Shown here piece after piece: positions 35-60,843 of a stretch of 64,000 bases of DNA (the stretch's first letter is position 1; every line of letters starts with the position of its first letter). The position numbers were made by a program, and so were the translations under genes. The notes under the pieces are model-generated. The model saw only the letters and a program-made list of their open reading frames with translations. It did no database searches and had not been told where the DNA came from. This DNA comes from Patescibacteria group bacterium (GTDB lineage Bacteria; Patescibacteriota; Microgenomatia; 2-02-FULL-39-11), in the NCBI GenBank assembly GCA_023379265.1, contig JAMCUI010000007.1:14780-78779 (forward strand), read 5' to 3'.

Positions 35-427
35 ATGGATAAAGTCATCGCTTTTACATCTGAAAATGAAAGGAAATATAAAAATATAATAATAGACAAT
101 ACTATCAATCAACCCTATATTTATGTCCTTTTTTACAAGAAAGTCGATCCAAAAACATTAACTGAGCAAGACTACAAGGATTTTTCCCACGTAGATCCTA
201 CAACCAACTGGTTAGCAGTCTCTAAATTCCGCAACTACGGCTTCCGGAAGATTACTAGTGAAAACATGCAAGGAGCAAAATTATTAAAAACAGTTTATAA
301 CAGCCCTTATTCCCAATACGGTATCTATACAAAAGGCGGAAATCTGATAGTCAGGTTTGAAGTAATAAATTCCAATGTGACTGTTTCAAACGCGTTGATT
401 TCTGAAGCCAATTCAGTTAAAATATGA
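35..427 (+). CDS. hypothetical protein (frame open to window start; may be 5'-partial)
   Basis: 130-aa ORF with no recognisable motifs. The reading frame has no stop between position 2 and the ATG at 35, so the true start may lie outside the window. Confidence 0.35.
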   Translation: MDKVIAFTSENERKYKNIIIDNTINQPYIYVLFYKKVDPKTLTEQDYKDFSHVDPTTNWLAVSKFRNYGFRKITSENMQGAKLLKTVYNSPYSQYGIYTKGGNLIVRFEVINSNVTVSNALISEANSVKI

Positions 428-439
428 TAACCAAATTAC

Positions 440-512
440 CGCGGGGTAGTGTACAGTTGCACAGGAGGCTCATAATCTCCTAGGCCGGGTGCGACTCCCG
501 GCTCCGCAACCA
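440..512 (+). tRNA. tRNA-like element, initiator tRNA-fMet-like (anticodon CAT, encoded CCA), non-canonical D-arm and T-loop
   Basis: The 5' end CGCGGGG and 3' end CTCCGCAACCA mirror the E. coli tRNA-fMet acceptor, including the C1xA72 mismatch and an encoded CCA. The anticodon stem GGAGG/TCTCC carries the loop CTCATAA (CAT at 471-473). The T-stem is CCGGG/CCCGG. The D-arm is shortened with a 3-4 bp stem and no GG, and the T-loop TGCGACT is atypical. Confidence 0.45.
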
Positions 513-522
513 ATAACTAAAT

Positions 523-547
523 AGCGCCTCACAAGGCGCTGTTTTGG
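523..547 (+). terminator. rho-independent terminator-like hairpin
   Basis: AGCGCC-TCACAA-GGCGCT stem-loop followed by GTTTTGG. It sits between convergent genes and just downstream of the tRNA-like element. Confidence 0.4.
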
Positions 548-569
548 TATTTCAATAAAAACAGTTATC

Positions 570-1695: not shown

Positions 1696-1768
1696 GCCAG
1701 CGTAGCTCAGTGGTAGAGCAGCGTCTTCATAAGGCGTGGGTCACAGGTCCGAATCCTGTCGCTGGTAC
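1696..1768 (+). tRNA. tRNA-Met (anticodon CAT), elongator type
   Basis: Full cloverleaf. Acceptor GCCAGCG/CGCTGGT (G1-U72), D-arm GCTC-AGTGGTA-GAGC, anticodon stem GCGTC/GGCGT with loop TTCATAA, T-arm ACAGG-TCCGAAT-CCTGT, discriminator A. No CCA is encoded. It could alternatively be Ile2 (lysidine), but a separate tRNA-Ile(TAT) is present in the window. Confidence 0.85.
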
Positions 1769-2079
1769 TGTATCACAAATCTCCGGTCCGAATCCTGTCG
1801 CTGGTACTGTATCACAAATCTCCGGTCCGAATCCTGTCGCTGGTACTGTATCACAAATCTCCGGTCCGAATCCTGTCGCTGGTACTGTATCACAAATCTC
1901 CGGTCCGAATCCTGTCGCTGGTACTGTATCACAAATCTCCGGTCCGAATCCTGTCGCTGGTACTGTATCACAAATCTCCGGTCCGAATCCTGTCGCTGGT
2001 ACTGTATCACAAATCTCCGGTCCGAATCCTGTCGCTGGTACTGTATCACAAATCTCCGGTCCGAATCCTGTCGCTGGTA
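1746..2079. repeat. perfect 39-bp tandem repeat array; each unit is the 3' 22 nt of tRNA-Met plus a 17-nt spacer (9 copies of the tRNA segment)
   Basis: The unit CTGTATCACAAATCTCC+GGTCCGAATCCTGTCGCTGGTA repeats head-to-tail without mismatches. The first copy of the 22-mer is the T-arm and acceptor 3' end of the tRNA itself. Stop-free frames on both strands produce the artefactual repeat-peptide ORFs seen in the six-frame track. Confidence 0.95.
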
Positions 2080-2086
2080 CAATATT

Positions 2087-3133
2087 TTAATAGAAAATGA
2101 TTGAAGTCAGCATATAATTGTATATATAGGTGATGTCCGAAATGCTGACATTACTGGCTATTCCAAACGATCCGTTGAACCTCGGAAATATTGAAGCTAT
2201 ATAGCTTTGTCCCAAAGCTCCCTGCGTATATAGAGTTCCGTTTACCCCATCAACAACTATCGGTACAACGTATGGTGGATTATTGTTTACCTGGGGCATT
2301 GTGTAATTTGCCGCCACTCCAAGCCCTATATGAGGCGTATCAGGAGAATTTATGTCATATCCCGGAGGAAATACCGCTATCCCCTCATGATTGTTGGAAA
2401 TACTTTTTATCATCTGCCAGTTTGATGGATATTGGATCATATACCTATCCTGTGGATTATCATAGACTGCCCATGTCACTTGTACGGGAGGTGTGGAAGG
2501 CGGAGTATAGACTTGAGTTTGCCCATTAGTATCTTGAAAGATTATCTGCACGCTAGTGACTGGATTGGGTGTAGGATTTACAGAATTTCCATTATTGGAA
2601 TTGACAGAGGTTTGTGAATGTGATGTATTTACTAATCCTTCCGAAGTTGACATCCCTCCCTGTTTAGAACTATTTGAAGTACTATTTTGGGAAGTTTGAT
2701 TTGGTACATTCCCGCTTCCGGTCACAGATAAACTATTTTTTTTATCTTCATTTCCCACATTCACACCTGTAACTAGTGGGCTTTGTGGGCTAGTAGCATC
2801 TGTACCGGTTTTCCTGTTTGTGCCTGGAGTAATCTTTAGTAATATATCAATTAGCCAATTTGGGTTATCTTGGCTTGTTGTTGGTATCAAGTCTCCTAAT
2901 TTATGCTTGTAAATAAAATTACTTGAACTTTGGGGAGGTTTAGGCAAAAAAATCCTAATAATTATCAGTATTGCTGCTATGCTTAAGACGCTTATAATTC
3001 CGGGGATAAATAACTTATGTAAGTGTGAGGGCAAAACCATTTTCTTCTTTGATTTTTCCGTAATCATGCCCTTGCTGTCTATACTGTAAGCCATAACTAA
3101 TTTTAGAAAAAAAGTTTTACCCACTTTTGCCAA
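2087..3133 (-). CDS. hypothetical membrane-anchored/secreted protein with Ser/Thr/Asn-rich linker
   Basis: 348 aa. N-terminal TM (IISVLSIAAILIIIRIFL), a low-complexity S/T/N-rich stretch, and a C-terminal globular region with no recognisable motifs. Confidence 0.45.
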   Translation of the reverse strand: MAKVGKTFFLKLVMAYSIDSKGMITEKSKKKMVLPSHLHKLFIPGIISVLSIAAILIIIRIFLPKPPQSSSNFIYKHKLGDLIPTTSQDNPNWLIDILLKITPGTNRKTGTDATSPQSPLVTGVNVGNEDKKNSLSVTGSGNVPNQTSQNSTSNSSKQGGMSTSEGLVNTSHSQTSVNSNNGNSVNPTPNPVTSVQIIFQDTNGQTQVYTPPSTPPVQVTWAVYDNPQDRYMIQYPSNWQMIKSISNNHEGIAVFPPGYDINSPDTPHIGLGVAANYTMPQVNNNPPYVVPIVVDGVNGTLYTQGALGQSYIASIFPRFNGSFGIASNVSISDITYIYNYMLTSIIFY

Positions 3134-3456
3134 TTCAAACTTGCATCCTGAGGCGTAGGCGATGGTTCCGCTATTGGAGAAACCGTAGGAAGCAAAAGTA
3201 CCACCTCGTCTTCTTTACCTAGATTCAATTTATCCCGCGCCTCCTTTTCTATATATTGCTTACTTTCCACTTCAGCTAGTTTTCTTTTCAGCTGGTTATT
3301 GTTGTTTTGTGCGTCCTGAAGCTGATTTTGGGTACTCTGTATAATTTTTTCCCGTTGGGAAATCTTTACCCATGAACGGACTATTCCTACAACAAGCATA
3401 ACAAACACTATCAAAAGTATCCAATTTAGCAGTTTATATCGGTCCATAATTGACAA
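3103..3456 (-). CDS. septum formation initiator FtsB/DivIC-like protein
   Basis: 117 aa. N-terminal TM followed by a coiled coil, and the family-typical motif YIEKEARDKLNLGKEDEVVL. Confidence 0.6.
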   Translation of the reverse strand: MSIMDRYKLLNWILLIVFVMLVVGIVRSWVKISQREKIIQSTQNQLQDAQNNNNQLKRKLAEVESKQYIEKEARDKLNLGKEDEVVLLLPTVSPIAEPSPTPQDASLNWQKWVKLFF

Positions 3457-3485
3457 AAATCCCTTCTTGATGTATTATAGGCCCC

Positions 3486-4355
3486 ATGAATTCAGATAAA
3501 AACACTGATTTGTCTTCTGCTCGTGAACAATTTATCAGATATCTCACAGAAAACAGAAGGGCTCATGCTACTATTTTAGCATACAGCAAAGATATAGAGC
3601 AGCTGGTCGCCTTTCTTTCTGACATGGGCAAAAAGCAGATTATTGAAGTAGAAAAAATAGATCTTGATGGCTTTCTGAAAAAACTTTCCACAGATGGTTA
3701 TACTCTTAAATCCCTCTCCCGAAAAATAAACTCCATAAAAACATTCTATCGGTTTCTTAAAAACCAAAATCTTATTACAACCAATCCAGCAGCAGAGATT
3801 ACCCACCCAAAATATGAGACTAAACCCCCCAGAATACTATCAAAGATGGAATATAGAGCTTTAAGGGACGCTTGCAGATCAGATATAAGAACTTATGCCA
3901 TCGTGGAGCTCTTCCTTCAGACGGGCATAAGAATTGGAGAATTGGCTAATTTAAAACTGATAGATGCCAATGAAAGAGAATTAATAATTAGACCTCAAGA
4001 GAGTCATCCGCAACGCTCAATACCTTTGAATAAGGCAGCCAAAGCTGCACTGGATAAATGGCTAATTATAAGACCAAAAACCAATGGCGAAGCTCTTTTT
4101 GTCACCAAAACCGGCAGGCCGCTTTTAGTTCGTAATATTAGGACTACTATAGATAGATATTTTAAGATTGCCGGTATTGAAAACGCCAAAGTAAATGATC
4201 TCAGACATACTTTTATTGCACACCATCTAGCTGCAGGAACAGATCTTACCATGATCAGCCAGTTAGTAGGACACAAAAGACTGGCTACTACAGAAAAATA
4301 CCTAGACCTCATAAAGGACAAGGCCGTCTCCAACCTGAAACTGGAAGAGCTTTAA
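3486..4355 (+). CDS. tyrosine site-specific recombinase, XerC/XerD family
   Basis: 289 aa. N-terminal core-binding SAM-like domain. C-terminal catalytic signature LRHTFIAHHLAAGTDLTMISQLVGHKRLATTEKYLDL, i.e. the R...HxxR...Y tail. Confidence 0.8.
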   Translation: MNSDKNTDLSSAREQFIRYLTENRRAHATILAYSKDIEQLVAFLSDMGKKQIIEVEKIDLDGFLKKLSTDGYTLKSLSRKINSIKTFYRFLKNQNLITTNPAAEITHPKYETKPPRILSKMEYRALRDACRSDIRTYAIVELFLQTGIRIGELANLKLIDANERELIIRPQESHPQRSIPLNKAAKAALDKWLIIRPKTNGEALFVTKTGRPLLVRNIRTTIDRYFKIAGIENAKVNDLRHTFIAHHLAAGTDLTMISQLVGHKRLATTEKYLDLIKDKAVSNLKLEEL

Positions 4356-4568
4356 CTTGAACTGTTGAGCATTAACGTCTCTTCTTACCTTACTCTCCTT
4401 CCTTTTCCGATATTATTAATTTCATCACTTGTGAGTCCAGATAAGTTGATTTTATTGTGAAACGTGAGGGATAAAAGCACTGTTTTTTCTGTTGAAGTAT
4501 TTAGAACCGAAACTCTTAAGTTTTCCAGCAGTGCAAACAATGAACAAGTTTTTTAATTGGATTTTATG

Positions 4569-4640
4569 TGGAACCGGATGGAGTCGAACCATCTACATCG
4601 ACTTTATAAGAGTCGCGTTCTGCCGGTGAACTACGGTTCC
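4569..4640 (-). tRNA. tRNA-Ile (anticodon TAT/UAU)
   Basis: Reverse complement folds as acceptor GGAACCG/CGGTTCC, D-arm GTTC-ACCGGCA-GAAC, anticodon stem CGACT/AGTCG with loop CTTATAA (TAT), T-arm GATGG-TTCGACT-CCATC, discriminator A. No CCA. Confidence 0.8.
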
Positions 4641-8796: not shown

Positions 8797-11283
8797 TTAA
8801 TTTATTGCTGTTTCTGAAGTAGCAGTGTCGCTAAAACTGTAAATTACTCCAGATAGGAGTATATTTGTTCTAAATCTCTTGTCATTCACTTTTATATTTT
8901 TTGTGTTTGCATTTTTGCCTTGAAATTTTCCTGAAAATAACAGTTTTTCTATTGATTTTACCTGCTGATCTTTGCCTTTTTTATACCATCTCCGGCTATT
9001 TTGACATTGTATTATATGCTGCTTAAGTTTGATAAATAAAACAAGACAATAAATTATAAAAAGAATCTCCCAATATGCTTCCTTATACTTATCCATTTCA
9101 AGATTTGACACCCGGTCTTGCAGTAATAATAACGGTAATAACCCATCTTTTAAGTTTAGGTATTGCTCCTCAAATAAGCTGTCATAACTTTTAAGAAATT
9201 CTATTTTCTCCTGTAACTGGTCTAGATTTTCTTGTGTAAATCTGTCGGAATAATCAGATATAAGCCGTTTCAGCTGAATATAGATAATTGTTGAAACAAG
9301 AAATTTAATCTGTTCGGGCATTTTATCCACTCTAAACACCTCCGTAAGTACTGACAATGAGGTAACAATATCTGAAATATTTTTGAGAATGGAAGGGATC
9401 TCTGGCTTTAAGAATGTCTGATCTCTAGAATCTTTGAGTAAATCTATTATTTCCTCAGTTAGAAATATCAAATCCATATATATTTCTCTTCTACCATTAC
9501 GAGTCAAACTATCCCGTTTTCCTGGATACGTAGCATTATTTTCCCCACATGTAAGAAAAGATTCCAATCTAAAATCATCAAAATATCTGAAAATATGTAC
9601 AAATCTTTCTGTAAAATCTGCATCCCACATCGGTTGAAAAATAAAACCATCCTTTTGAAAAGATGTGCTTTGTGAAATATCAAATCTATATTTATGCGCA
9701 ATAAGGCTATGTAATTTCATAAAGTCTTGCTGCACTTCTTTAGTATTTTGTGATAAACTAAATTCTCCAAATTGTCTACCTAACTTATTGCTATGTTCAG
9801 CGCTAAATTCTTTCTCTTCACTTAACTCTAAAGGTTTATTAGGACTCATCTCGATAATTTGTTTTTCGCTTCGTTTATAGCTCCCGGTCGTGCTTGAAAG
9901 TAGGGTTTTGAGATGACTTCTAGACTGATCTGGATTATGAGAAATCAGAAGAAACTGTTCAAAATTCAGTAATTGTTCTTCTAGTAAATCAATCTCAGCC
10001 AAAGTGTCTTTGACATAATTCCACGGCAATATTTCCTTTCGTTCATTGCTCTTTTCTTCACCATCTAAGATTTCTTTTTCTTCTTTCCCCTCCACGCTCT
10101 TTAACCATTCTTTTTTATCTAAAACATCTACTGGAAACACTTTGGGCAAAACAGTAGCTCCTACTGTATCATCAATCAAACTCCTCATAAAAGCATAAGC
10201 AGCCAACACACGCATCCGGTCTAGAGTATCAATCTCTCTAACCTCCTTGGCAAATTCGGTTTGAGATTTATCAAAATCACTTTTATTATCAGCATAAAAA
10301 TCTATCTCTTTGAAGTTTTCTTCTTTTTTCCTTTCTCTACCGTTTATCCTTTGAGTGGACATTCCATCAGACTCTAGTCTTTTGATACCATTTGTTCCGT
10401 TACCTCTACCTTCTCTAACAAAATCTTCTTCCACCTGTAAAACCAAAGCTTGAGCCATCATCGCAAAAGCTGTCTTTATATTCTTGTCTTTCTCTGCCAT
10501 CTTTTCCATTTCCCCTGCATAAAATTGCTCCTTTGCCTTATTTTCTGACTCTCTTTGGAAATCAGAGATTAATGTTTCCTGCTTAAACTTATCTAAAACG
10601 CTTTTCTCGCTTTCCCTCTTTTCTGCTGAAAACGATTGGGAAAATGATTCAAATATTTCCGTATGGTCAATATTTTTCCCCCGGGATTCAACTAAAACCG
10701 TTTCTTCTTCAATCGTATCGTGACGATCATGTTTTTCTCCAGTTACTCTATCCAAAAAATTCCATAGCGTGTCGCTATCCCCACCTACAGTATATGAAGT
10801 CAATTTGACGGTATCACCTTTTTTCTCTGCCTTATAAATCCTGTTATTTCTTCCGTGAGTATCCTTCGTCTCTTTCCTACTACTCACCCACACTGCAGTT
10901 ATATCAGACTCATCAGAAGCTATCTTATGATATTTATCAATAAGCTGACGATAGGTCTGCCCCCCATTCTCCTTATCATCAATCCATACCTCTGCCGCTT
11001 CTCCTTCCTGTGAGAGCAAAGTGTCCACGAATTCCTCCTGTCCGGAAATTTTATTTCTCACTTTTACATTTTTGCCTATCCTCAATGTAACTTGATTTAT
11101 GACGCTTCCATCGGTACTAAATTCATCCTGATATGTCCTCATATCCCGCGCCATGGCTGATACTGCTTTTTTACCCTCACCCAACCGCTCCATCACGCTA
11201 AAGGCTCTGGCGCTTGATAAATCATGATCTCCAGCTGAACCATTTGTTCCGATTCCCATCGGTGCAATCGCTTCAACCATCAT
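8797..11283 (-). CDS. large uncharacterised protein (828 aa), acidic/charged, single TM near C-terminus; first gene downstream of cobalamin-riboswitch-like leader
   Basis: Long ORF with no signal peptide and one hydrophobic segment (WEILFIIYCLVLFIKL) about 90 aa from the C-terminus. No catalytic motif recognised. Confidence 0.45.
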   Translation of the reverse strand: MMVEAIAPMGIGTNGSAGDHDLSSARAFSVMERLGEGKKAVSAMARDMRTYQDEFSTDGSVINQVTLRIGKNVKVRNKISGQEEFVDTLLSQEGEAAEVWIDDKENGGQTYRQLIDKYHKIASDESDITAVWVSSRKETKDTHGRNNRIYKAEKKGDTVKLTSYTVGGDSDTLWNFLDRVTGEKHDRHDTIEEETVLVESRGKNIDHTEIFESFSQSFSAEKRESEKSVLDKFKQETLISDFQRESENKAKEQFYAGEMEKMAEKDKNIKTAFAMMAQALVLQVEEDFVREGRGNGTNGIKRLESDGMSTQRINGRERKKEENFKEIDFYADNKSDFDKSQTEFAKEVREIDTLDRMRVLAAYAFMRSLIDDTVGATVLPKVFPVDVLDKKEWLKSVEGKEEKEILDGEEKSNERKEILPWNYVKDTLAEIDLLEEQLLNFEQFLLISHNPDQSRSHLKTLLSSTTGSYKRSEKQIIEMSPNKPLELSEEKEFSAEHSNKLGRQFGEFSLSQNTKEVQQDFMKLHSLIAHKYRFDISQSTSFQKDGFIFQPMWDADFTERFVHIFRYFDDFRLESFLTCGENNATYPGKRDSLTRNGRREIYMDLIFLTEEIIDLLKDSRDQTFLKPEIPSILKNISDIVTSLSVLTEVFRVDKMPEQIKFLVSTIIYIQLKRLISDYSDRFTQENLDQLQEKIEFLKSYDSLFEEQYLNLKDGLLPLLLLQDRVSNLEMDKYKEAYWEILFIIYCLVLFIKLKQHIIQCQNSRRWYKKGKDQQVKSIEKLLFSGKFQGKNANTKNIKVNDKRFRTNILLSGVIYSFSDTATSETAIN

Positions 11284-11345: not shown

Positions 11346-11454
11346 CAAAATGATCAACGAATTCTCAAGTTACCCAATTTCAAACAAGCAAATTATGTGT
11401 ACTTATTGATTGATTGGATAATTGTATTGTTTGTTGATTTATTACTTTCCTGCT

Positions 11455-11575
11455 CGGGATAAACTTGAAGGGGAGTTCCCGGCTTATATCGCAGAAGGCG
11501 AAATTCACGGTTGCGGCACAGTCCCTGATTTTCACAGGGTTCCTCTTTTCCTTCAATAGAGTTGTTAATTTACTT
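11455..11575 (-). ncRNA. cobalamin (B12) riboswitch, short-type aptamer
   Basis: The minus-strand RNA reads GGAACCCUGUGAAAAUCAGGGACUGUGCCGCAACCGUGAA...AAGCCGGGAACUCCCC. This matches the cobalamin riboswitch core GGAA-nnn-GGUG-AAA-UCC...GC-C-CCGCAAC-UGUAA and a B12-box-like AAGCC-GGGA...CCCC. It is followed by a terminator and then a gene. Confidence 0.55.
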
Positions 11576-56511: not shown

Positions 56512-59500
56512 TTAAGTTGTGGAGGCTGATGTTTTAGAATCCGCAGCACCTTCTTTTACCCCCGTATCTTCCGTAGGTAAAACTGGCCCTGTATCTGCGG
56601 CGGGAGACTGACTTTGATCTAAAGAGGTATTTTGTTGAAAATAATCACTCAAGGGATTCTGACTTTGAGCTTCTTGTACCGGTGAATTATTCTCCTGTGG
56701 AGACACGCTAACGGTTTTATCCTTACCCTCCTCACTTGATACCTCCTGCATGCTGAAATCCTTTACTTGGGTTTCCGGATTTCCTGTATTTGGTTTATCT
56801 TTTTGACCTGCCGCTTCAACTGACGTCCCAGATGGTTTCTGTTCCATTTCCTTTACTAATTCACTGGCGCATTTGGGACAGGAAAGGGGAGAAGCATCAT
56901 CTGTTTTCCTCTGCCAGATATTGGAACAGTTAAGACACTGGTATGATTTGGAGTCTTCTTGAGGTTTGTTTCCCCCAGGCACTTCTTCTACCTGTGGATT
57001 TTTTGTCTTATCATCTACCACAGCTGGCTTTTTAAGCTCCATCTTCTTTACGTTAAAAGCTAGTTGCTGCCCGTCATAATCCACCATTACCGTATCACCC
57101 GCAGCTAATTCTCTTTTTATAAGAAGAGAGGAAATTTCATTCTCTATAAGACGTTGCATTGTCCTGCGCAAAGGCCTGGCGCCAAATACGGGATCATAAC
57201 CCACCTCGGCTAGATACGTCTTTGCATCATGACTGATATCTATAGCAATATCCTGTTCCTCAAGCAGTTTAGAAAGAGCTTTCACCTGAAGTCCTACTAT
57301 TTCCACCATATGTTTTCTGGTCAACGGTCTAAAAACTACCACCTCGTCAAAACGATTAAGAAGTTCCGGACGGAAAAACTTGCGCAACTCTTCCATCAGG
57401 CGATCCGCCAATCGAGCAAACATCTCATCTTCTCCACTATCGGATTTTTCCTCGTCTTTATTCTCCAAACCCAAAGGAATAATATCTTCAGGCTTTTTAG
57501 TCTGTGCCTCTACTGTACTAAACAATTTCACCATCTTTCCAGAAATCCATTCGGTTGAATCCGTATTTGCTCTCTGGAAATAACGTCCGACAGCAACGAT
57601 TAATTCCTCACCAGTAGGCTTAAAAACGTGTTGATCCCATTTTTCAATAGGAAACTCAATCTTTTCCTCGTCTTTAGGATTAATCTCAACTCCTGTTTTA
57701 TCCTCTGACTGTTGTGCATTATCAATTCTTTTCTCACTTGTATTTACCTCAACCTGATTGGTGCCGCCATTATCTGTTTTATTGTTTACGGTTTTTAATT
57801 CGTCTGTCTTTATATCTCCACCTGAAATATCCGAACCGTCTGTTTTTTCTTTCCCTTCCGGTGTTTTTCCTATAGAAACAACGTCTGCGCCCTTCAACGT
57901 ACATCCCGTAAAATACTCAGCTAGCGTACCCGTAGTCCAATCTGTTGTCTGCAAATTCTCCCTTAGCCAAAACCTGTCTCCGAAAGAAACCACTTCAGTA
58001 TTGGTAGGGGATACAGCATGTGTATCAATCCTCGCAGTAGGCAACTGTTCTTGAGGCCGGTCAGGAAGAGCATTCACCACTACACCTCCTTTTACATAAT
58101 CCAAAAGAGATTTTTGTGTCCATTCTTTGGTCGTTGTTGAGGTACGCTGCCACAACCTATCGTCAAAAGTTATAATTTCCGAGCCGTCAGGAGCGATAAG
58201 ATGAGTATCTATACCGTCCTGAGGGAAATCTTTTTCTCCCTCTGTTACCGTGGAACCGGCAAAATAGTCTAAGAGTGAAGAAACTGTCCAGAACTTATCG
58301 CTTCCTTCCTTCTCCCACAGTTTTCCCTTAAAACTCACAAGTTCCCGTCCAGTTGGCGAAATAGTATAAGTACTAAAAATTTCCTTTTCTTTAGTTTCAT
58401 GACTTTCTTCATTATTTTTTGACTTATCACTCCAACCCAACATTTCATCCTGGATGATACCGCTACCTAGATTGGAAGTACAAATAACAATGGTATTCTT
58501 GAAAGAAATGGTATGTCCTTTATTATCAGTCAACCTACCATCATCTAGAAGCTGTATAAGAATATTAAAAACATCTGGATGGGCTTTTTCTATTTCATCA
58601 AATAAAACTACTGAATATGGTCTTCTTCTCACCGCTTCAGTTAATTGCCCTCCCTCTTCATAACCAACATATCCAGGAGGCGCACCAATTAATTTTGCGA
58701 CCTCGTGCTTTTCCATATACTCGGTCATGTCAAGCCGGACGATCATCTCCTCGCTTCCAAAAAGTATCTCAGCTAAAGCTTTCGCCAACTCTGTTTTCCC
58801 TACTCCGGTTGGTCCCATAAAGATAAAACTACCAATCGGCCTCTTGTTTGATTTAAGTCCTGCCCGGCCGCGTCTGACTGCTTCGGCTACCGCCAATACC
58901 GCATCTTCCTGATCTATAAGCCTCTTATGGATAATATCCTCCAGACTCATCAACTTTGTCGATTCGCTTTCAGTCAACCTGCTTATTGGAATATTTGTCC
59001 AGCGGGAAACAATATCGGCAATTATATCCGGCCCGACAATATTGGTCGTAGTCGATTTCTTTACCTGATATTGCTCTTTAAGTTCTGTTTGGGCCTGCTC
59101 CAATTCCTGAATGTCTTTTTTTATAGTCTGGAGGTGAACTTCATCTCCTAATTTTTCCGCTTCTTTTGCTTCACTATCCAACTTTTTCAATTTATCTTCG
59201 CCTTTTTTTATTTCCTCCGGTAAGGAAATTGCGGGCAATCTTACAGAAGCCGCAGCTTCATCAATTAGATCAACTGCTTTATCAGGCAAAAACCTGTCAC
59301 CAATATAACGCTGTGATAGTTTTACAGCTGCATCCAAAGCCTCGTCTGATATTTTTACACGGTGAAAAGCTTCGTATTTATCACGAAGAGCAGAAAGCAT
59401 TTCAACGGCCACATCAGCTGTAGGCTCCAAAACATATACTGGCTGAAATCTTCTTTCAAGTGCTGGATCCTTCTCCACATATTTTCTGTATTCAGTCACT

Positions 59501-60843
59501 GTTGTCGTCCCTATCACCTGCAATTCACCACGGGCAAGGGATGGTTTAAGAATATTTGACGCGTCCATGGTTCCTTCACCACCAGAACCCGCTCCCACCA
59601 TATTATGCAACTCATCAATAAAGAGAATAATTGCTCCACTTGCGGCCTTGACTTCTTTAATAAGGTTTTTCAACCTCTCTTCAAACTCCCCCCTATGCTT
59701 TGCTCCGGCGATAAGAGACATCAAGTCAAGCAATAACACTCTTTTATGAAGAAGGGTTTCCGGAACATCTCCATGAGCAATGCGAAGAGCCAAACCCTCT
59801 ACAATTGCAGTCTTACCCACGCCCGCATCTCCGATTAACACAGGATTATTTTTAGTTCTTCGTGAGAGTATGTGAATGATACGTTCAATCTCAGTACTTC
59901 GGCCAACCACCGGATCAAGCTGTCCCTGGGCTGCTTTAGCGGTTAAGTCTTCAGTGTATTCCTCAAGGGCAGAACTGGTCTTTTTCTCCTCTTCTTTCTC
60001 TAATTCTTTCTTTCCTGTTATCTTTTTATTCAACACCTCAGGCTTCAAATTGTATTTAACTAAAGTTCTTGCAGCTAGGCCTTCCCCTTCATGCGAAAGA
60101 GCCAATAATATATGCTCTGGAGAAACAAACTCGTACCCTAAAGATCTTGCAGCAGACAACGACAACTCAAGCACCCGCTTCACTCGGGGGGAAAACTGCG
60201 GTTGCCCGGAAAAATTGCCTTGTTTGAAACTTTTCTCCAATTCCGTTTGTATCTCTGATGGAGTAGCCTTACATTCGGAAATAATCTGGTAAATACTGCT
60301 ATCTCGAAGAAGCCCCCAAAGCACATGTTCTGTATCTATGTACTGGATTTTCAACTCTTTTGCTTTTCCCACAGCACTCATTAGAGCAGTATTCGCTCTT
60401 TGGGTAAGTCGAGAAAGAACGTCCATTCCAGCTCTCTTTTTCATATCTATATTCGTCTGACCATCACTTGAAGTGTCTTTTTTTTGTGGGGTATTTTTAT
60501 CTTTTTGCTGTTGTTCTGTCTTTCCTTTTGATTGGTCTGGTTTTTGAGAAACACTATTCTGCTGCTGTCCGACAACAGGCGGCTTGCCTATTCCAGAAAA
60601 AGCTTTACCACCAGGAGGATTACCAATTCCCGAATAACTTGTGCCTGATGGGGAATTACCTATCCCTGAATAAGAAGTGTTTGTATCTTGCACGGTATCC
60701 GAAGCCGCTTGGGTTGAGTTTTTTGTAATGGTAACTACCCGTTGGTCTACATCTTGACCACCCGTAGCATCATTTTGCTGACTCTTGCCACCTGAAGCGT
60801 CTTTTTTCAAGTATCTGCTGAAATTAAAAAGTCCTGCGGGCAT
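56512..60843 (-). CDS. ClpB/ClpC-like two-ring AAA+ chaperone with GS-rich N-terminal leader, large D2 insertion of four novel repeats, and C-terminal zinc ribbon
   Basis: 1443 aa. Clp-N repeats. D1 Walker [16 protein letters not shown] short M-domain coiled coil. D2 Walker [15 protein letters not shown] and TSNLGS. The '[15 protein letters not shown]' sensor motif (standard spacing from TSNLGS ~45 aa) is then delayed by about 340 aa, a stretch carrying four copies of H-x-x-x-P-x-G-x-E-(I/V)-x-x-F-...-W-...-W-T-...-L-x-x-Y-F. There is a CxxC...CxxC zinc ribbon near the C-terminus. The true start may be the internal Met near 60444. Confidence 0.75.

Follow-up and report, generated by a model that had tools for sequence, protein, structure and literature searches.

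In canonical transfer RNAs (tRNAs), G18 of the D-loop intercalates into the T-loop and forms hydrogen bonds with Psi55, G19 pairs with C56 to give a flat face onto which RNase P, the L1 stalk and other partners stack, and a reverse-Hoogsteen pair, U54-A58, closes every T-loop. The initiator tRNA of Escherichia coli, our reference for comparison, is 77 nt long, with a 9-nt D-loop and an A11:U24 pair; the reverse orientation, U11:A24, is elongator-like in the identity rules of that species. Bacterial initiators are marked by a 1x72 mismatch, which together with 2:71 and 3:70 forms the formylase determinant, and by three G:C pairs in the anticodon stem (PMC5389676). The same study documents the natural exceptions au/GC/GC, GC/GC/gu and au/GC/gu in some mycoplasmas and alpha-proteobacteria, identifies G30 of the middle pair as the essential element, and reports that an au/GC/gu stem sustains growth of E. 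coli. Here we analyze a 64,000-nt chromosomal fragment of a Patescibacteria group bacterium (contig JAMCUI010000007.1; 39.4% G+C; hereafter the window) and, within it, a tRNA(CAU) gene at positions 440-512 of the forward strand. We hold with considerable confidence that this locus is a genuine initiator tRNA-fMet gene of a Microgenomates (Gottesmanbacteria-like) bacterium of the Candidate Phyla Radiation (CPR), and probably its only one. Its elbow bears A18 and G55 in place of G18 and Psi55.

Comparison with described tRNAs

The 73-nt gene reads CGCGGGG UA GUGU ACAGUU GCAC A GGAGG CUCAUAA UCUCC UAGG CCGGG UGCGACU CCCGG CUCCGCA ACCA, and ARAGORN, run on the 64-kb window, calls it as tRNA-Met(CAU) with boundaries at exactly 440 and 512. 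An earlier note, made from the letters of the stretch alone, had pointed to an initiator-like element here, and the acceptor ends, the C1xA72 mismatch, the anticodon loop CUCAUAA, the D-loop without GG and the T-loop UGCGACU that it listed all agree with the window sequence. Its description of the D-arm as truncated does not hold, since the D-stem is intact with four pairs (G10:C25, U11:A24, G12:C23 and U13.G22) and only the loop is short, at 6 nt versus 7 nt in the tRNA at 1696. The claimed absence of G18/G19 is correct insofar as the loop contains no GG, yet A455-G456 preserve an A-G dinucleotide at that very place. The length of 73 nt rather than 77 follows from the short D-loop (6 nt) and a variable region of 4 nt, itself one nucleotide short.

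Two checks proposed in the earlier note, an ARAGORN call and a covariance-model score for the cloverleaf, both came out in favor of a tRNA: when positions 380-580 were searched with permissive filters, the Rfam tRNA model (RF00005) aligned to 440-512 at 39.1 bits (E=3.2e-07; gathering score 29). The concern that standard scanners may miss the gene was half right. A whole-window Rfam scan with default filters lost it while finding the other two window tRNAs at 65.0 and 63.1 bits, but ARAGORN and the relaxed Rfam search recover it. The default speed filters thus drop a tRNA that lies 10 bits above the gathering threshold once they are relaxed.

How does the gene compare with its described counterparts? 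Like tRNA-fMet from the E. coli metZWV and metY loci, it combines an acceptor of the form CGCGGGG...CNCCGCAACCA with C1xA72 (C440 and A508 unpaired), G2:C71, C3:G70 and A73, and so carries the Fmt determinant. It also shares the 7-nt loop CUCAUAA with its CAU anticodon, G30:C40, the U8-A14, G19:C56, U54-A58 and G53:C61 combinations, and what appears to be a single-gene transcription unit. It differs from the E. coli initiator in having A18/G55 for G18/Psi55, a D-loop of 6 nt versus 9, U11:A24 for A11:U24, A29:U41 and G31.U39 for two G:C pairs, a Watson-Crick 26:44 pair, a 3-nt variable region and 73 nt versus 77, and in that CCA is encoded in only about one-fifth of its relatives. The canonical class I core, G18-G19/Psi55-C56, is absent, and A18-G19 with G55-C56 stands in its stead. 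The full set of three G:C pairs is likewise missing; A29:U41, G30:C40 and G31.U39 instead constitute the documented natural au/GC/gu variant, which keeps G30:C40 between two purine:pyrimidine pairs and is identical to the anticodon-stem pattern of certain mycoplasma and alpha-proteobacterial initiators (Shetty et al., NAR 2017, PMC5389676). For those organisms no D- or T-loop change is reported there, whereas here au/GC/gu, present in all 60 distinct sequences of the family described below, accompanies an altered elbow and a compact core.

That core recalls tRNA-Pyl and bovine mitochondrial tRNA-Ser(UGA), which also have a 6-bp anticodon stem, a 3-nt variable region and a small D-loop. The likeness to tRNA-Pyl extends to the lack of G18G19 and of T54-Psi55-C56, with U54.A58 and a purine at 57 kept, and tRNA-Pyl of D. 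hafniense also has G55 (PMC1851642). However, tRNA-Pyl has a single nucleotide between the acceptor and D stems, a 5-nt D-loop, A56 in D. hafniense, a CUA anticodon and a paired G1:C72, whereas 440-512 has U8 and A9, keeps G19:C56, and carries CAU and C1xA72. The resemblance is architectural, without sequence homology: the gene shows the first four tRNA-Pyl traits, lacks the one-nucleotide linker and CUA, and is a tRNA of the compact-core type rather than a member of the tRNA-Pyl family.

A second parallel is viral. The valine-accepting tRNA-like structure of tymoviruses (RF00233) matches 440-512 at 20.8 bits (E = 0.017), and a short D-loop with CAGU together with a GUGCAACUC T-arm is the consensus of that element too; in the Rfam alignment, CAGU and the T-arm GGGUGCAACUCCC of the viral structure face CAGU and GGGUGCGACUCCC here. 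Membership of RF00233 was rejected, the score lying under the gathering score of 40 and the acceptor being a normal 7-bp stem with no pseudoknot. According to a review, the D- and T-loops of the tymovirus element associate in nearly the same way as those of canonical tRNA (PMC4810234), suggesting a solved-structure precedent for the same loop pair building a normal elbow, if the residues correspond as the Rfam alignment implies. The viral element differs in its pseudoknotted acceptor arm, its valine anticodon and its location at the 3' end of an RNA genome. Eukaryotic initiators, too, are set apart from elongators by a T-loop signature of their own, A54 and A60; it is positions 54 and 60 that are changed there, not 18 and 55, in another domain of life and with G18-Psi55 kept. 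An A54-A58 pair in place of U54-A58 has been noted (PMC7912444).

The Microgenomates family and competing explanations

The principal support for the initiator assignment comes from homologues. A scan of one genome per species with the pattern CGCGGGG..CTCATAA..GGTGCRA retrieved at least 119 loci, nearly all from Patescibacteria/CPR. Among the genome matches listed, 21 loci share with the window the short D-arm GUGU-ANAGNN-GCAC, and wherever a title is informative it names Gottesman-, Woese- or Levyibacteria or Microgenomates. A metagenome scan, in which the 5' half was fixed and everything 3' of the anticodon loop left free, contributed 117 further loci among the matches listed. The resulting family of 139 loci (21 genome loci, the window and 117 metagenome loci) contains 60 distinct sequences, and a smaller alignment of the genome copies alone agrees with the 60-sequence alignment.

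Pairing is complete in the D and anticodon stems (100% each) and nearly so in the T stem (99.7%), compared with 34-53% of cells in a control in which the partner columns were slid by 1-3 positions. Both sides have changed at seven pairs (100 cells), with compensatory changes in the T stem at 49:65, 50:64 and 51:63, so that all four helices of the cloverleaf are backed by covariation; its retention through compensatory changes in 60 distinct homologues excludes chance. Pair 26:44 is A:U in 45 sequences, G:C in 15 and unpaired in none, and at 6:67 a G:C pair (54 sequences) alternates with G.U (six). The sole position that never pairs is 1x72, with C opposite A in 60/60, while G2:C71, C3:G70, A73, A29:U41, G30:C40 and G31.U39 are invariant. 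So is G55-C56, although the T-loop was unconstrained in the metagenome search. The D-loop consensus is A-N-A-G-Y-N, and A14 and the entire anticodon loop are constant, the loop CUCAUAA by construction as it was set by both patterns. U11:A24, an auxiliary rather than a defining feature whose 5' side was fixed by the patterns, occurs in the window and all 60 sequences in place of A11:U24, which other CPR initiators keep, for example those with a GAGA/UCUC D-stem. A Watson-Crick version of the 15:48 Levitt pair was rejected, 20% of cells pairing. Of the options left by the earlier note, neither a pseudo-tRNA nor a tRNA-like element is supported, and a functional minimal initiator is favored by initiator marks that are invariant in 60 distinct relatives and by a promoter-like site and a terminator-like hairpin flanking the gene. 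Nor are these features, as that note had treated them, peculiar to one locus: the same design is standard for Microgenomates initiators.

The putative transcription signals (Table 1) recur among the relatives. In the window, the -10-like TAAAAT ends 17 nt upstream of the tRNA, which would give a leader of about 10 nt. Of 109 distinct homologous loci, 94 show a strong -10-like hexamer at a distance of 8-40 nt ahead of the tRNA, and 58 show a perfect-stem terminator-like hairpin with a T run no more than 45 nt beyond the gene. A perfect 4-bp hairpin ending at -1 occupies the approximately 14-nt leader in 33 of these loci, against a shuffled expectation of 5; it typically reads GUUC-N5-8-GAAC or GUAC...GUAC (e.g., L135, L154 and L162), and the leader in the window has none. 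C74 is encoded in 107 of the 109 and complete CCA in 23, so that the Microgenomates lineage presumably relies on a CCA-adding enzyme; the encoded CCA of the window is no family trait.

In conjunction with the identity elements, these signals lead us to propose the following model. The gene would form a transcription unit by itself, bounded by a promoter and a terminator of its own, and its transcript would be trimmed by RNase P and a 3' nuclease. MetRS would charge the tRNA through the CAU anticodon and A73, and Fmt would formylate it through C1xA72, G2:C71 and C3:G70, the terminal mismatch presumably also keeping the tRNA off EF-Tu. Placement in the 30S P site would occur through G30:C40 of the au/GC/gu stem. 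Function of the promoter and terminator and expression of the gene are, like the model as a whole, predictions from sequence.

Identical copies of the tRNA occur in Candidatus Gottesmanbacteria (L089), Candidatus Microgenomates (L049) and two records titled "uncultured Gammaproteobacteria" (L026 and L094). Across window positions 2019-4320, L026 is 95% identical at the nucleotide level, and its gammaproteobacterial label is probably wrong. A Microgenomates-type initiator is in fact borne by ten third-party-annotation records with that title (L011, L014, L017, L026, L050, L060, L094, L097, L101 and L107), of which L026, L094, L017 and L011 resemble window genes at the nucleotide level beyond the tRNAs; these taxonomic labels, too, are probably wrong. 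The gene is no artefact of one assembly, since NCBI GCA_023487465.1 and an independent Logan assembly both contain the locus. The neighboring dehydrogenase gene, with both CAU tRNAs alongside, is also found in GCA_023487465.1 and independent Logan assemblies.

Is this the only initiator of the cell? ARAGORN finds three tRNAs in the 64-kb window, namely 440-512, the tRNA(CAU) at 1696-1768 and tRNA-Ile(UAU) at 4568-4640, and no other initiator. The statement of the earlier note that no second initiator is visible is thus upheld, the other CAU tRNA being elongator-type with a paired G1.U72 end. The 139 family loci, spanning 820 kb, hold 115 initiators of the family type and 89 elongator-type CAU tRNAs, and no canonical C1xA72/U55 initiator. 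Published tRNA counts for 95 complete Patescibacteria genomes merge fMet under "Met" or omit it, which makes the single-initiator question unanswerable from that table (PMC13011429, Table S2).

Several points weigh against our assignment. Alignment columns 1-23 and the anticodon loop were set by the search patterns, which accounts in part for their invariance; the metagenome pattern left free the 3' strands to which these columns pair. One of the three E. coli-type G:C pairs is present, U11:A24 replaces A11:U24, and G18, Psi55 and a 9-nt D-loop, features that matter in E. coli, are missing. The covariance score (39 bits) falls far under those of the neighboring tRNAs (63-65 bits), and the default Rfam filters lost the gene. 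Its thermodynamic fold is unremarkable (z = -1.9), and the minimum-energy structure recruits acceptor bases to extend the T-stem to 7 bp; because thermodynamic folding does not discriminate, we relied on covariation instead. The genes fmt, def, infB and infC were not found within the window, nor were fmt and infC, the latter sought for the IF3 residues touching the elbow, in 2.5 Mb of family and related loci. We infer the lack of a second, canonical initiator in the genome from the 64-kb window and the 820 kb of family loci. Processing, charging, formylation and P-site function are, like expression, read from the gene's sequence.

The most serious alternative is that 440-512 is an accessory initiator of phage or integrative-element origin, with a canonical gene elsewhere supplying the true initiator of the cell; the copy would then serve the element, for example by boosting initiation or evading host control of it, or would be a mere passenger. 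Initiator-like tRNAs with an A-G D-loop and G55 are numerous on viral contigs, often in tRNA arrays; a tyrosine recombinase gene lies about 3 kb from the locus; the neighboring tRNA-Met bears an att-like 39-nt tandem array; and in L026 the initiator points the other way between the same flanking genes, with a 25-nt copy of its 5' end in front of it. These rearrangements and the nearby recombinase gene leave some room for a mobile-element origin. On the other hand, the same type of gene is found in every Microgenomates locus recovered (Gottesman-, Woese- and Levyibacteria), usually linked to elongator tRNA-Met, tRNA-Trp and tRNA-Ile(UAU), the surroundings are housekeeping genes, and no canonical counterpart appears in the 820 kb of family loci. 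Class-wide divergence with compensatory changes points to vertical inheritance, and the Microgenomates D-arm GUGU-ANAGYN-GCAC is not among the 45 most frequent of the 66 distinct viral initiator variants listed. We consider an element-borne initiator improbable.

Still less probable is that the gene encodes an elongator tRNA-Met, or a tRNA-Ile2 whose CAU is converted with lysidine, although ARAGORN labels it tRNA-Met only and U11:A24 has the elongator-like orientation. Against this stand C1xA72 in 60/60 sequences with G2:C71, C3:G70 and A73, the set by which bacterial initiators are recognized for formylation and rejected by EF-Tu (PMC5389676), the invariant G30:C40, and a separate elongator-type CAU tRNA, with G1 paired to 72, located 1.2 kb away. 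Moreover, tRNA-Ile(UAU) and the two CAU tRNAs should cover AUA and AUG, so that neither CAU tRNA need be a lysidine tRNA-Ile2. That the locus is a decaying pseudo-tRNA or a tRNA-derived repeat, initiator-like by mere resemblance, might be argued from the absence of G18G19 and U55, the single G:C pair out of three, the covariance score below that of its neighbors and the weak z. We give this scarcely any credence, as the helices are kept in 60 distinct sequences by compensatory double changes with one broken pair besides the 1x72 mismatch, G55, C56, A14 and the anticodon loop are invariant, and the -10-like and terminator-like signals recur at the frequencies given above; the marks of a pseudogene are absent. 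A tRNA-like regulatory or structural RNA without a role in translation (a viral-type structure, a decoy or an att site) seems to us just as hard to credit. The weak tymovirus match and the rearrangements at the L026 initiator could be cited in its favor, but that match lies far under the gathering score and needs no explanation beyond the common D-loop and T-arm motifs, the acceptor stem is paired normally, initiator identity elements are conserved, and the gene occurs once per locus in bacterial chromosomes, adjoining other tRNA genes.

The A18/G55 elbow across tRNAs

What is the relevance of the unusual elbow of this initiator? In other CPR initiators the D-loop has 7 nt and reads AGUAGUA rather than AGUGGUA as in ordinary tRNAs, a clean change of G18 to A beside U55 to G. 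Among the matches listed by scans that required G55, initiator tRNAs from many CPR phyla and from phages combine an A-G D-loop with a G55 T-loop. Across 364 tRNAs of the genome loci, U55 occurs with GG in 205 of 206 cases, G55 with A-G and no GG in 119 of 129, and C55 with GG in 16 of 16. The 620 tRNAs in viral loci, which were not pattern-selected, behave alike (U55 with GG, 600/602; G55 with A-G and no GG, 16/16; C55 with GG, 2/2), the association between position 55 and the D-loop having a Fisher p = 9e-30 with relatedness ignored, and the 16 G55 tRNAs in this sample span ten amino-acid types. In the CPR loci, G55 is present in 103 of 103 initiators, by construction of the search, and in three of 165 true non-initiator tRNAs, all three of them tRNA-Met; it is almost confined to initiators there.

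The simplest reading is that an A18-G55 contact would take the place of G18-Psi55, with G19:C56 and U54-A58 retained. In the Microgenomates form, the D-loop is in addition cut to 6 nt, and the Watson-Crick 26:44 pair lengthens the anticodon stem to 6 bp and leaves 3 nt of variable region, so that the core is compact. A normal L-shape is plausible, given the tymovirus tRNA-like structure and tRNA-Pyl as precedents. Two other pairings were considered. An intraloop G55:N59 pair was rejected on inspection, position 59 being C, U or A among relatives, and a Y20:G55 pair forming an antiparallel mini-helix with G19:C56 proved uninformative, as the constant pyrimidine 20 is usual in canonical tRNAs too.

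Related departures occur elsewhere. C55, found in the elongator tRNA-Met of the window, is shared by further elongator tRNA-Met genes from Microgenomates and other CPR and by a tRNA-Ile(UAU) gene of L094, always with a GG D-loop; it is a second, different departure from U55. In one sublineage among the metagenome loci of the family (L120-L236), C54 replaces U54 (CGCGACU), in some members together with C58 (CGCGCCU, CGCACCU), so that the U54-A58 reverse-Hoogsteen pair is lost while G55-C56 is still invariant. More than 120 IMG/VR contigs (L237-L356) carry initiator-like tRNAs with A-G D-loops (AGUAGUA, AGUAGAA or AGAAGAA) and a T-loop of UGCGA or UGCAA, many of them in otherwise canonical arrays of up to 26 tRNAs; the viral scan required G55 and says nothing on the frequency of A18/G55. 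The occurrence of such initiators amid canonical arrays hints that the feature is selectable. In addition, records assigned to Verrucomicrobia (L040, L065 and L068), cyanobacteria (L039 and L112) and Planctomycetes (L057) contain tRNA arrays in which many isoacceptors have G55 and a D-loop without GG, and a few have odder T-loops (AGCGUUA, GGCGGAA, CGCGAUA). These look like non-canonical tRNA sets, possibly borne by mobile elements.

One may ask whether A18/G55 is a deliberate, initiator-specific mark used across CPR and many initiator-bearing phages, rather than neutral drift. We put this forward as a tentative idea that is more apt to be wrong than right. In the 30S pre-initiation complex, the N-terminal domain of IF3 touches G19, Psi55, C56 and A57 of the initiator, and mutation of the IF3 contact residues lowers fidelity (PMC9723500). 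As position 55 is read in an initiator-specific step, co-evolution with IF3 is a reasonable hypothesis, and the A18/G55 swap could retune or privatize recognition of the elbow by IF3 or uL5. Alternatively, it could hide the initiator from an enzyme or nuclease that reads Psi55/G18; such an anti-determinant role, in which no Psi55 can be made or a nuclease is escaped, is as likely as co-evolution with IF3, and so is neutral drift fixed by compensation. If the elbow mark is real, Microgenomates would have gone further, to a tRNA-Pyl-like compact core, with some sublineages dispensing with U54 and A58 as well.

Genomic surroundings and implications

Beyond the tRNAs, the window encodes ribonucleotide reductase, GMP synthase, IMP dehydrogenase, two class A penicillin-binding proteins, ribosomal protein L25, ClpB, and a thiamine salvage operon behind a TPP riboswitch. 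Coordinates are collected in Table 1.

Table 1. Positions and properties of features in the window.
Feature	Positions	Strand	Details
Sigma-70-type promoter-like site	395-423	+	TTGATT (395-400), 17-nt spacer, TAAAAT (418-423); 9/12 consensus matches
Initiator tRNA gene, tRNA-fMet(CAU), CCA encoded	440-512	+	ARAGORN, Rfam tRNA model, 60 homologues
Acceptor 5' strand CGCGGGG	440-446	+	Pairs with CUCCGCA (502-508); C1xA72, G2:C71, C3:G70, G6.U67
D-arm	449-462	+	4-bp stem GUGU/GCAC with U11:A24; 6-nt loop ACAGUU (453-458), A455-G456 at the place of G18-G19
Anticodon arm	463-481	+	Stem GGAGG/UCUCC plus A26:U44 (463:481), giving 6 bp; loop CUCAUAA (469-475), anticodon CAU (471-473)
Variable region AGG	482-484	+	3 nt left once U44 pairs (4 nt otherwise)
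T-arm	485-501	+	Stem CCGGG/CCCGG; loop UGCGACU (490-496): U54=490, G55=491, C56=492, G57=493, A58=494
Discriminator A73 and encoded CCA	509-512	+	
Intrinsic-terminator-like hairpin	519-549	+	G+C-rich, core AGCGCC-UCACA-AGGCGCU, T-rich tail; starts 7 nt past the tRNA
Elongator-type tRNA-Met(CAU)	1696-1768	+	G1.U72, D-loop AGUGGUA, T-loop UCCGAAU (C55); usual neighbor of the initiator
Tandem array of 39-nt unit	1746-2080		8.6 copies, 100% identity
Tyrosine recombinase gene	3486-4355		
tRNA-Ile(UAU)	4568-4640	-	ARAGORN and Rfam
828-aa open reading frame (ORF)	8797-11283	-	Without Pfam match
Cobalamin riboswitch	11453-11569	-	32.8 versus 31.5 bits, barely above threshold
ClpB-like ORF	56512-60843	-	1443 aa

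The elongator tRNA-Met overlaps a perfect tandem array whose unit consists of the last 23 nt of that tRNA and 16 nt of trailer. The array is also present in NCBI GCA_023487465.1 (L357), two independent Logan contigs end at or near it, and the closest relative, L026, has a single copy; it could reflect repeated att-site duplication, slippage or a copy number guessed by the assembler. In L026, the initiator occupies the opposite orientation between the same flanking genes (3614-3757), with a different terminator, and the 25-nt duplicate of its 5' end lies upstream at 3614-3639, so that the gene has been a point of recombination. tRNA-Ile(UAU) is rare in bacteria. Seventeen occur in the 139 family loci, the window and its own copy included, which suggests that this lineage decodes AUA without lysidine (TilS).

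Two further loci deserve mention. The cobalamin riboswitch precedes the 828-aa ORF, which is followed by a 157-aa ORF and a DUF6580 membrane protein, a cluster that may constitute an unrecognized B12-related uptake system. The ClpB-like ORF has an N-terminal extension and about 355 residues between the second AAA domain (ending at residue 818) and the D2-small domain (starting at 1174), and could harbor an intein or some other insertion.

Initiator tRNA as a kind is well known, and identical sequences stand in public assemblies; the coordinated A18/G55 change and the compact form apparently have not been described. A search of the open-access literature found no description of an A18/G55 elbow in CPR or phage initiators or of the compact Microgenomates form, which is weak evidence of novelty. 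Judged from its sequence, the initiator gene of the window looks ordinary and functional, and it is mildly surprising for tRNA biology. The loss of 440-512 under default Rfam filters implies that CPR tRNA complements are possibly under-called or mis-typed, and A18/G55 could serve as a sequence signature of CPR initiators. More broadly, Microgenomates have a class-wide initiator in which G18 and U55 have jointly become A and G, a simpler form of which occurs in many CPR phyla and phages, while elongators encoded on the same DNA are mostly canonical. Such initiators represent a natural double-mutant experiment on the tRNA elbow as seen by RNase P, the CCA-adding enzyme, TruB, IF3 and the ribosomal P and E sites. 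If A18/G55 is indeed an initiator-specific mark, bacterial initiation can do without the "universal" G18-Psi55 contact, whose two members are exchanged together.

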